From the IMG/VR virus record IMGVR_UViG_2568526312_000010: a stretch of 64,000 nt of DNA; one strand, 5' to 3'. Positions 9,001 through 12,000 of the stretch are shown piece after piece (the stretch's first letter is position 1; every line of letters begins with the position of its first letter). The position numbers are program-made. Source of the DNA: a virus (Duplodnaviria > Heunggongvirae > Uroviricota > Caudoviricetes).

Positions 9001-12000
9001 TTCCGTCACATCAAGCGCACTTGCTAAATCTTCCGTCGTGACATCAATGTGACCACGTAGTGACACGCCGTGACATGTCGTGACATTTCGTGACGCGCTC
9101 ACCAGAAGATGGATATACACTGCCATCACTGTTGCGATTGGCTGTCCTGATACCCTGGCAATCGTTCGCCACTTGGGGTCATTTGGCATGTCATGCCACA
9201 ATCTGAGCCAGGCATTAGCCATACTCACCTCTTCTGATACCGAACTTTACCCTCGAACATCCGGAAGAAATCCGGCATGAATATTGTTGGTCAATGCACG
9301 ACAACAGCATTACCAGGCTGACCCCCACTGTTAGTCAGGGTGCCCCAGGCGATCGCCGCTGCGACAAAATCATCCACATCTTTCACCAGCCGATCCCTCC
9401 GTTCGACGATCTCACGGTAATATTCAGAGCTGTGACTGCGCATACGGGCCACCAGCAGAGGCGGCATTGCCTTTTCGATCGCCGGTAACAGAGCCTGCAT
9501 TTTTTCAACTGCATCAGGGGTGTCTTTCTCTATCCAGCGGAAAATTTTCTGGGTATTGCGAGCCAGGGCTTCCGGATGGCTGTCGTCGTACAGTTCAGGA
9601 AACGTCATACCCAACTCAAAATAAGCCTGGGTTATTCCAGCTGCCGGAACTTTTTCGCCATCAGGACGCGCCCAGGCATTCATCGCCATGCGGATGTGTT
9701 CATGCTTGATTTTCATGAATCCCCCCTTGGTTAGAAGGCGGATTATGATCAGAATCGGGAATGACAACCGTCGGTATGTGTAACTCATATTTGAGCGCCC
9801 CGGCAGTGACTGCCTGAATTAGCAACGCCCATTTCCACGGAACGTCTTCCCCCCACATGCTGACTGTGGTTTTTGACGTTCCTAGAGCGGCGGCTGTTTT
9901 AACAACTCCGCCAAAATAGCCTAATACTTCTGATTTTTTCATGAGTCGCTCCATAAAACTGAACGCCAAAAGTTTAATAATCAAAACCAAAGAAAGTCAA
10001 GAAACAAAACCATCTGTGTTTTAAAATCAAAACATGAACAAGCAAACAATATCTGAACGCATAACCCAACGTATGCATGCGCTAAACTTGAAAGGCAAAG
10101 ACCTTGTCAATGCCACTGGCGCATCAAAAGGCTCCGTAAGTCAATGGATGAACGGTGGAGGAGCGCCGTCCTCGCGTTACATAAGTTCACTGGCAAAGAT
10201 ATTGAAAGTAAACGAAAATTGGCTTCTTAATGGAGGAGAGTTAAATACAGGTGATTCGCTTGATCTATCTTTACCGCCGATAAAAACGGTTCCGCTACTA
10301 TCACTTCAGCAGGCAGCAAGCTGGAGTGATTATATGAAAAATTCCTCAATAACCTCTTGTGTGCAGCTTGTCGGAGAAATCCCGGCCAATACCTTTGCTG
10401 TTGTTCTAGAGAGTGACAGTATGTCGACATCTGGTGGTGGAGTTTCCATCCCAAATGGTTCAACAGTTTTTGTTGATCCCGATCGAATCGTACAACCAGG
10501 AAATATTGTCCTTGCCTTACCCAAAGGGACCACAACGCCTGTCATTCGCAAACTGGAGATAGAAGGGCCGGATATTCTTTTAGTCCCCACGAATCCTCGC
10601 TACCCTTCAATTATGCTGGATGATCTATCTTGCATATTGGGAGTATGCTTTAAAATTCAACAAGATATTTAACCAACCTCATCTATTTGATTAACTGTAT
10701 GCCATCGTAGTGATGGCGTAACAGCTGCCTGCTTAAAATGTTTTGATAAAAAAACATTGACCTTAAATGTTCGTTTTTCTAAACTTCATTCATTCCCTCA
10801 CCCCGCCCCACAGAATGCAGGGCAATACTTCGAGTTACCAGGCAGTGGTCAGGGGTTAAGTAGCCAGCCCGAGGCGTAAGAACATGACGGCAGGGTTCAA
10901 CTTTAATAACTATGCAGCAGGTTTTTGTTCCGCTACCCCGGCGTTAAGGGGAAATGAGGTCAACATGGATACGCTCAATCTTGGCAACAACGAATCTCTG
11001 GTATGTGGCGTGTTCCCCAACCAGGACGGTACGTTCACCGCGATGACGTATACCAAAAGCAAAACGTTTAAAACTGAAGCTGGCGCGCGTCGCTGGTTAG
11101 CCAGAAACACTGACTGATGAGGTTGACGATGGAATTTAAAGATTTACCTCCTTCAATCCAGGAGATTGCAGCACACACACTTCGTCATCGTCTGAACGAA
11201 CTTGAATTGGAATCGGTAACGAAAAAAGACACTGATAATATGGCTCGTAATGTGCGCGATGCGTTTACCGGATTGTATTTCTGTGCGTCTATAAATAAAC
11301 ACGACTCAGAGAGTGTGGCAAATAAAATTGCAGAAACGACAGCGCAAAACATCAATACGAAACCAACGGAAGAAGAAATTGATCAGTTTGCTCATGATGC
11401 TGGTTTAAAAAACAAGAAAGAAAAATCGCCATATGCGGGGAACATGTTTGTTTATGACAATCTCATCAGAATTCGTGGCGAAATTCCGGCGGAATACCTG
11501 GCAAGAGTCCATCAGGCATTGCTTAAAAATTTGGAAACAGAATTATTTGATGGCAACACTAACGGTTTCTTCATGGTATCAGGCCTTGAGAAAGACTGGG
11601 ATGCAGAAAAACGCTGGAATGTTGCTACATGGTTATTCAGTAACAGAGCCGCTGCACTGGAAGCTTCGGCATGTATTTGCGGCCTGTTCTTAACAGACCA
11701 CAAATATAATCTGGATGTGTACAGTTATATTTACGCTGAACACGGTCCACTCTGGATTGACTGGTAATTATAAGGAAACACCAGCAGGGCCGCGGCGACC
11801 AACAGAACGATTAAAATCAATAATGCCATTATAAAGGACATTATTTAATTTATCGTCGAATGCTGATTCTGTGAGCCTCAACTCTGAATGAGTTTTTAAT
11901 AACCCTGATTGCCTGAGTTGATTTACCAGGCATTCAATCTGTTTTTCAATAAGCGGATTTCTTTTTTTGTTTGGCATTTTATCCTCCATTGAGGTTCTGG

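Follow-up and report, generated by a model that had tools for sequence, protein, structure and literature searches.

A widespread structured leader RNA at the start of early-left operons in lambdoid prophages

We analyzed a 64,000-nt stretch of DNA from a Caudoviricetes virus (IMG/VR record IMGVR_UViG_2568526312_000010; the whole stretch is called the window below), which carries two Rac/Qin-type lambdoid prophages, P1 and P2. A block repeated between the two proved to be real and widespread: a structured RNA module, not filed before, with which lambdoid early-left operons begin. Each prophage has one copy of this two-part leader, composed of domains 1 and 2. The marks of a structured cis-regulatory leader RNA are present, since the helices are kept by compensatory changes and the position is fixed relative to the promoter and the first open reading frame (ORF). 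The reading that we favor, tentatively and with somewhat less than even confidence, is that the element acts in cis as a structured 5′ leader RNA controlling expression of the early-left (pL-type) operon.

Domain 1 is ∼108 nt long and lies on the plus strand at 10792–10899 in prophage P1 and at 58561–58668 in prophage P2; the strand was assigned from the way in which the promoter, nut site, and Shine–Dalgarno (SD) sequence are oriented. In prophage P1, a closing helix (PC; 10795–10799 with 10893–10897) pairs bases 4–8 of the element with bases 3′ of an AUG. Within it stands one long arm, composed of helices P0a (10800–10804 with 10852–10856), P0b (10808–10811 with 10845–10848), and P1 (10816–10822 with 10838–10844) with internal loops between them, and capped by a conserved 15-nt terminal loop (10823–10837; consensus CAAKAC-NNN-GAGUUA). 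The almost invariant core of ∼33 nt (10857–10891; consensus UAAGUAGCCAGCCYGAGGC-RNAN-GAACAUGAMGGC) contains a candidate 3-bp hairpin (GCC-YGA-GGC) and, as read from the sequence, an SD-like GAGG (10871–10874) followed by a variable 9-nt spacer and the AUG (10884–10886) of an upstream ORF (uORF). This SD–9 nt–AUG arrangement was kept in 69 of 71 metagenome matches, obtained with a search that left that half of the element unconstrained. The architecture in prophage P2 is the same at an offset of +47769, with the uORF AUG at 58653. Both the loop motif and the core occur only at these two copies within the window, where we found neither a further copy nor a complementary target of the element.

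The fold is carried by covariation. A covariance model (R1), built from eight E. coli-type copies with the proposed structure, matched over its full length in all clades and gave a single match in each of the two window prophages (128 bits in prophage P1 and 135.9 bits in prophage P2). In an alignment fitted to R1 and spanning Escherichia, Serratia, Pectobacterium, Symbiopectobacterium, Winslowiella, Superficieibacter, and Arsenophonus, standard pairs occupied 86% of cells, compared with 29–47% when the partners were slid by one to three columns. Both sides had changed in 21 of the 24 pairs (8–11 for slid partners), and the covariation score was 0.438 vs. 0.03–0.09 in the slid controls. An independent MAFFT alignment of 24 Arsenophonus-clade copies was 94.6% paired (20–42% in slid controls), and its one-sided changes were G–U pairs. 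The sequences of the helices themselves have diverged: helix P1 reads GCAGGG/CCAGGC in E. coli, CACGAAG/CUUCGUG in Serratia, CGCUGAG/CUCAGCG in Pectobacterium, and GCCGGGA/UCCCGGU in Winslowiella, and PC is found as AACCC/GGGUU, AACAAC/GUUGUU, CCAACC/GGUUGG, CACCCC/GGGGUG, and CUCACU/AGUGA. Three pairs in the core never vary and so give no covariation signal; the counts of G–U and A–C pairs across clades (23 vs. 43), taken as a guide to the strand, are affected in part by register problems in C-rich helices. Truncated copies and copies with a replaced 5′ arm that retain the core (L006, 4592–4675; L136, 509–569) represent natural deletion variants.

The element is also fixed in position. A promoter scan placed an early-left promoter of the pL or dicBp type ahead of each copy, both on the plus strand: TTGACC-17-TAAACT at 10757–10785 in prophage P1, the positional homologue of K-12 dicBp, and TTGACT-16-TAAACT at 58527–58554 in prophage P2. 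Each matches the consensus at 9 of 12 positions, which alone is not above chance (about one such site is expected per region). Among 140 distinct related loci, however, 112 have a promoter-like site (at least 8/12) whose −10 hexamer ends 73–80 nt 5′ of the core AGCC. From this fixed distance, the closing helix begins about 1–6 nt past the transcription start. The hexamers differ in sequence among the 140 loci, as expected for different immunities. The dicBp promoter of the K-12 Qin prophage is experimentally established, and its transcript is polycistronic (ydfABC-dicF-dicB) (PMC10448788).

The original prediction, made from this DNA alone, had proposed a functional RNA element behind a sigma70-like promoter or else a recent recombination boundary, and had suggested a covariance-model search and a comparison across prophages for compensatory changes. 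The scan found the promoters, with equivalent spacing in most of the related loci, and both analyses spoke for a functional RNA: the option is supported by compensatory covariation in four helices across distant Enterobacterales and by the constant 5′ position on a pL-type transcript. A repeat search and pairwise alignment delimited the block as a 156-nt direct repeat pair (10799–10954 and 58568–58723; 97% identity, 4 mismatches), with similarity gone within a few bases on either side; the roughly four differences and unrelated flanks predicted for 10799–10955 and 58567–58723 are thus accurate. Also as predicted, the genes on both sides differ. Upstream is a LexA-like repressor in prophage P1 (10034–10672; helix–turn–helix and Peptidase_S24 domain matches), compared with a PaaR2-like gene, PaaA2, and ParE in prophage P2; downstream, YdfA (DUF1391; 10965–11117) follows the leader in prophage P1, and prophage P2 lacks ydfA. 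The recombination-boundary option holds as well. The block is bounded where modules meet, by the transcription start on one side and by the close of its final hairpin on the other, so recombination between mosaic phages also accounts for the unlike flanks.

The block was present in 3752 of 5426 complete E. coli genomes (about 69%), which excludes chance, and reached seven copies per genome in O157 strains. The Rac prophage of K-12 carries the whole element, between racR and a ydaG-type small gene. Copies were likewise found in 15 isolated phages and in >120 IMG/VR contigs. A scan of one genome per species added copies in Serratia, Pectobacterium, Symbiopectobacterium, Winslowiella, Superficieibacter, Arsenophonus, and Phlomobacter, and a metagenome scan returned mostly E. 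coli-type copies plus chance matches.

We considered whether the segment might be conserved without a function of its own, either as a recently exchanged recombination module or as the 5′ coding end of a shared gene. The 97% identity of the window copies, their sharp boundaries, and the ORF from 10884, which in prophage P1 runs in frame into ydfA (10884–11117), would fit this explanation. However, homologues in seven genera keep the helices by compensatory changes despite diverged helix sequences, and the ORF is conserved in neither length, sequence, nor frame; we regard the explanation as highly improbable. Across loci the uORF from the core AUG is 4–134 codons long, and no more than an initial MTA or MKA is common to its peptides. 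Whether a copy has ACCC or ACCCC changes the frame in which the 3′ block is read; in ACCC copies, the uORF stops at a UAA in the P5 loop of domain 2. The coding 5′ end of a shared gene, which had been named as one outcome that would overturn the prediction, is therefore ruled out, and the element is noncoding. In prophage P1 and many ydfA-linked copies, the in-frame uORF would yield a 77–78-aa, N-terminally extended YdfA. The uORF often ends at or beside the next start codon or SD: its end overlaps the next start in Symbiopectobacterium (AUGA and AUGGUAA), and in Rac its UAA lies inside P5, just 5′ of the ydaG SD. Judged from sequence, these end positions are compatible with translational coupling.

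Domain 2 (10900–10955 in prophage P1; 58669–58724 in prophage P2; both plus strand) combines a variable stretch, short motifs, and the hairpin P5. It stands immediately ahead of the first gene's ribosome-binding site, which in prophage P1 is that of ydfA (SD and ATG, 10956–10967); homology between the two prophages stops right after P5 (GGGGAAA). Its conserved motifs are GCAGCAG (within GCAGCAGG, 10914–10921, in prophage P1) and GUUCC (10927–10931). P5 pairs CCCC (10936–10939) with GGGG (10948–10951) around the loop GGCGTTAA. By eye, the hairpin is retained with different stems in different clades (CCCC/GGGG, GCCG/CGGC, GCCAG/CUGGC, and GCGU/ACGC), and RNAalifold gave weak support for P5. Domain 2 may serve as a hairpin and ribosome-binding module for the first gene. 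In K-12 Qin, the dicB leader has only the 3′ part of domain 2 (CAGTTCCGCTACCCCAGCGTTAAGGGGAAATGAGG) before ydfA and lacks domain 1 entirely, which shows that the two modules are separable. A stretch of domain 2 (10927–10951 and 58696–58720; AGTTCC-GCYA-CCCC-GGCGTTAA-GGGG-A) loosely resembles the E. coli type I-E repeat of clustered regularly interspaced short palindromic repeats (CRISPR), which we take to be GAGTTCCCCGCGCCAGCGGGGATAAACCG. This likeness is probably due to chance, since the Rfam CRISPR-DR models do not match domain 2.

Domain 1 also occurs together with nut sites. In Arsenophonus prophages, it lies between pL and a boxA (CGCTCTTTAACA) followed by a lambda-like boxB (UCGCUGAAAAAGCGA), and the gene after this nutL-like site encodes a product that starts with an N-like arginine-rich motif. 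In Symbiopectobacterium, a hairpin and then boxA come after some of the copies, in the order of rrn operons (boxB-boxA). In all, boxA/boxB follow the element in 24 of the 140 related loci, as a separate module. The element is not itself a nut site: no boxA (CGCUCUUUA-like, up to one mismatch) was found anywhere in the 64-kb window, and its early-left regions contain no obvious N-like arginine-rich ORF. The lambda pL leader (ATCAGCAGGACGCACTGACCACCATGAAGGTGACGCTCTTA…; lambda 35500–35582, minus strand, L175) aligns with the flanks of an Arsenophonus leader (L135, 3370–3530) with a score of 33.7, compared with 18.0 ± 4.4 for shuffles. The two share ATCA..CACTG, CATGAAGG, GTGA, boxA, boxB, and TTTGGGGTGTGTGA, and the ∼85-nt interior of domain 1 is missing from lambda as if deleted. 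Domain 1 is, in sum, an optional module, placed after pL and ahead of nutL or the first gene; it does not replace nut. What remains in the lambda leader can form a CACC-AUGAA-GGUG hairpin just 5′ of the nutL boxA. Arsenophonus and Phlomobacter contigs also hold two complete immunity modules in tandem on the same strand, ∼2 kb apart (L135, 540–2020 and 2150–4030; also L126, L155, L158, and L167), each with a cro-like gene, a cI-like gene, pL, the element, nutL, and an N-like gene; the boxB types differ between the two modules.

Under the cis-acting reading, domain 1 would fold as soon as it is transcribed. The closing helix would pair the extreme 5′ end of the transcript with bases just past the AUG, in the first uORF codons, and the GAGG SD would be half buried in the 3-bp core hairpin. 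The fold could thereby set how often ribosomes start on a tiny leader ORF whose sequence is irrelevant, possibly together with a conserved host partner recognizing the invariant core and loop. Initiation on the uORF would then decide how much of the downstream operon is expressed, either by translational coupling into the first gene or by keeping the leader folded or translated, which would deny entry to Rho and RNases. In favor of this reading, Rho is known to silence the kil operon and early-left genes of Rac (PMC4150792), and the terminator of the small RNA (sRNA) DicF lies further down the operon. It is the combination of a 5′-terminal helix ending in the first uORF codons, a half-sequestered SD, a variable spacer, and an irrelevant product that argues for a cis element coupling folding with ribosome entry. 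The invariant block around the SD spans roughly a 30S footprint, and the strict invariance of core and loop suggests a candidate conserved host partner.

Several observations weigh against this reading. The contiguous 33-nt invariant block exceeds what a ribosome-binding site needs and points to a specific partner. Coupling is not universal, as some lineages end the uORF (MTAVVD*) 60 nt before the next gene. The folding energy of the whole leader is no better than that of shuffles (z about +1.1), so energy alone would have missed the element. Lambda and K-12 Qin manage without domain 1, which makes it accessory. Finally, translation of the uORF and every functional step are ones that we infer.

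Both copies stand at the start of an early-left operon with the order repressor, promoter, leader, small genes, DicF, dicB, and exonuclease. DicF, with its intrinsic terminator, was identified with Rfam RF00039 (75–77 bits) at 12316–12367 (plus strand; terminator-like site at 12350–12365) in prophage P1, ∼1.4 kb downstream in the same operon, and at 59727–59778 in prophage P2. Early-left transcription can arrive at dicB and the exonuclease gene only by passing this terminator. As an alternative to the cis-acting leader, domain 1 might be an RNA that modifies RNA polymerase, independently of protein or assisted by Nus factors: a second antiterminator or anti-Rho class, unrelated to put, that binds the emerging elongation complex and passes terminators such as that of DicF. 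Like putL and nutL, the element comes directly after pL; boxA/boxB or rrn-like boxB-boxA follow it immediately in Arsenophonus and Symbiopectobacterium; and an invariant core would suit binding to a conserved host machine. The window has an intrinsic terminator in the operon, yet it lacks boxA, put-like sequence, and an obvious N-like protein. However, such an RNA would be redundant where complete N/nut systems coexist with it, the lambda N system functions without it, each phage has a single copy with none in the pR operon, and it resembles put neither in sequence nor by model. We consider this role unlikely, if a serious contender. A bolder and similarly unlikely reading is that domain 1 is a new RNA class acting directly on RNA polymerase, Nus factors, or 30S, which would give N-less Rac/Qin-type phages termination- or Rho-resistant early transcription without a dedicated protein. 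If true, this would be a second class of antiterminator RNA, unrelated to put, that went unnoticed in the Rac prophage of E. coli K-12.

Searches for known RNAs linked the element to no described family. The put RNAs of HK022 (putL and putR) and HK639 (putL-like), a class defined by terminator read-through in cis that depends on the zinc-binding domain of RNA polymerase β′, were ruled out as its identity: the sequences are unrelated, blastn gave no HK022 or HK639 match among 50,697 phage records, R1 searches of the HK022 and HK639 genomes with filters off gave nothing above noise, and the put consensus pattern is absent from the window. The element lies directly downstream of pL, as put does, but each prophage in the window has one match only, with no second copy corresponding to putR. 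No Rfam 15 family matched the element at gathering thresholds in a search of the whole window, and at expectation values (E) up to 10, positions 10700–11000 matched only TLS-PK6 (16 bits), a chance match. The sRNAs AgvB/AsxR, Pas, and PreS were also rejected, all being located elsewhere, in the late region or at tL2a. A likeness to 4.5S RNA, seen only by eye, was discarded as the Rfam signal recognition particle models did not match. Full-text literature searches for the core sequence and for sRNAs at racR/ydaG returned nothing relevant.

Domain 1 might instead be a stable trans-acting RNA, made first after induction or infection, freed by processing or early termination, and acting on a host protein, a host RNA, or a defense system in the manner of a decoy or sponge. 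It is the earliest RNA from the strongest early promoter, is compact with a 5′-terminal helix, and is modular and dispensable; its long invariant single-stranded segments would suit recognition by a conserved host partner, and the lambda early-left operon does encode a trans-acting sRNA, PreS (10.1101/2024.10.31.621285). However, its 3′ end has no terminator or known processing site. At E up to 10, no other E. coli locus showed an extended stretch similar or complementary to the element, in a search that short seeds escape, and complementarity of the core to 16S and 5S ribosomal RNA was no better than for shuffles (3 of 30 shuffles equaled it for 16S). A role in cis is suggested, rather, by the SD–AUG of the core and by the helix that extends across the start of the ORF. 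We therefore regard a trans-acting RNA as quite unlikely.

With covarying helices that surround a highly conserved junction and core, and with its SD among the conserved bases, the element is also reminiscent of riboswitches such as SAM-III and preQ1-II, in which the SD is likewise part of the conserved region. Moreover, several ribozyme classes are associated with phages. A new self-cleaving ribozyme, or a ligand-binding riboswitch with the SD in its aptamer, is nevertheless improbable: no Rfam ribozyme or riboswitch matched when E values up to 10 were allowed, the conserved bases run together in a single block instead of being dispersed over junction positions, and no metabolic gene is associated with the element. 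We rank all three of these alternatives below the cis-acting leader mainly because the element coexists with N/nut, occurs once per phage, and has no 3′ terminator.

Further features of the window were recorded around the two leaders. A divergent P22_Cro gene adjoins the LexA-like repressor of prophage P1. In prophage P2, a paaR2-paaA2-parE2 toxin–antitoxin module (57516–58442) fills the repressor position, directly 5′ of the early-left promoter, and is adjoined by a YdaS/Cro-like gene (57179–57481, minus strand). Between the leader of prophage P2 and ydfC, a 68-aa zinc-ribbon ORF (CPECGG…CKNCGH; 58873–59079, minus strand) lies antisense, facing the early-left promoter; it is reminiscent of YnfU, a small zinc-knuckle protein of K-12 Qin (10.1101/511675). 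Elsewhere, Rfam matches comprised two hok/sok loci (4932–5106 and 52707–52881, minus strand), STnc100 (48597–48769, minus strand), and the ALIL frameshift pseudoknot of an IS3-type element (27209–27325, plus strand). Both prophages have transfer RNA clusters (389–638 and 49545–49791, minus strand), and three overlapping 281-nt copies with 162-nt spacing and 91–96% identity (35708–36312) probably sit inside a large structural gene.

The nut and put leaders of lambdoid early operons are textbook models of transcription control, and the element described here is a third at the same place, unrelated to them in sequence. It lies upstream of the toxic cell-division inhibitors kilR, dicB, and DicF, which Rho must silence if the host is to survive, and it could explain how N-less prophages control or release them. 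It is also found in phages of insect symbionts and plant pathogens.

Among known systems, the lambda nutL/N leader likewise occupies the region between pL and the first early-left gene, but the element itself has no boxA/boxB, and none lies downstream of the window copies. The K-12 Qin dicB leader (dicBp-ydfA) opens an operon of the same type and shares the 3′ part of domain 2 before ydfA; unlike the window copies, it lacks domain 1, and it has been given no function (PMC10448788). Like the element, put is a structured RNA at the very start of a lambdoid pL transcript, is cis-encoded, and is recognized as RNA, and HK022 is without N just as the window prophages are without a recognizable N/nut. 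However, put consists of two stem-loops of ∼70 nt, whereas the element combines a closing helix with a single long arm and a 33-nt core that contains SD–AUG, has no copy in the pR operon, and coexists with N/nut in Arsenophonus phages. Leader-ORF and Rho-dependent attenuators include the mgtA-mgtL and corA-corL leaders and the Gifsy-1 isrK-orf45 leader. The element has no homology to them, and we found no alternative conserved pairings for it; what it shares with them is a structured leader with a short, sequence-irrelevant ORF, and translation of this ORF could set transcription further downstream.

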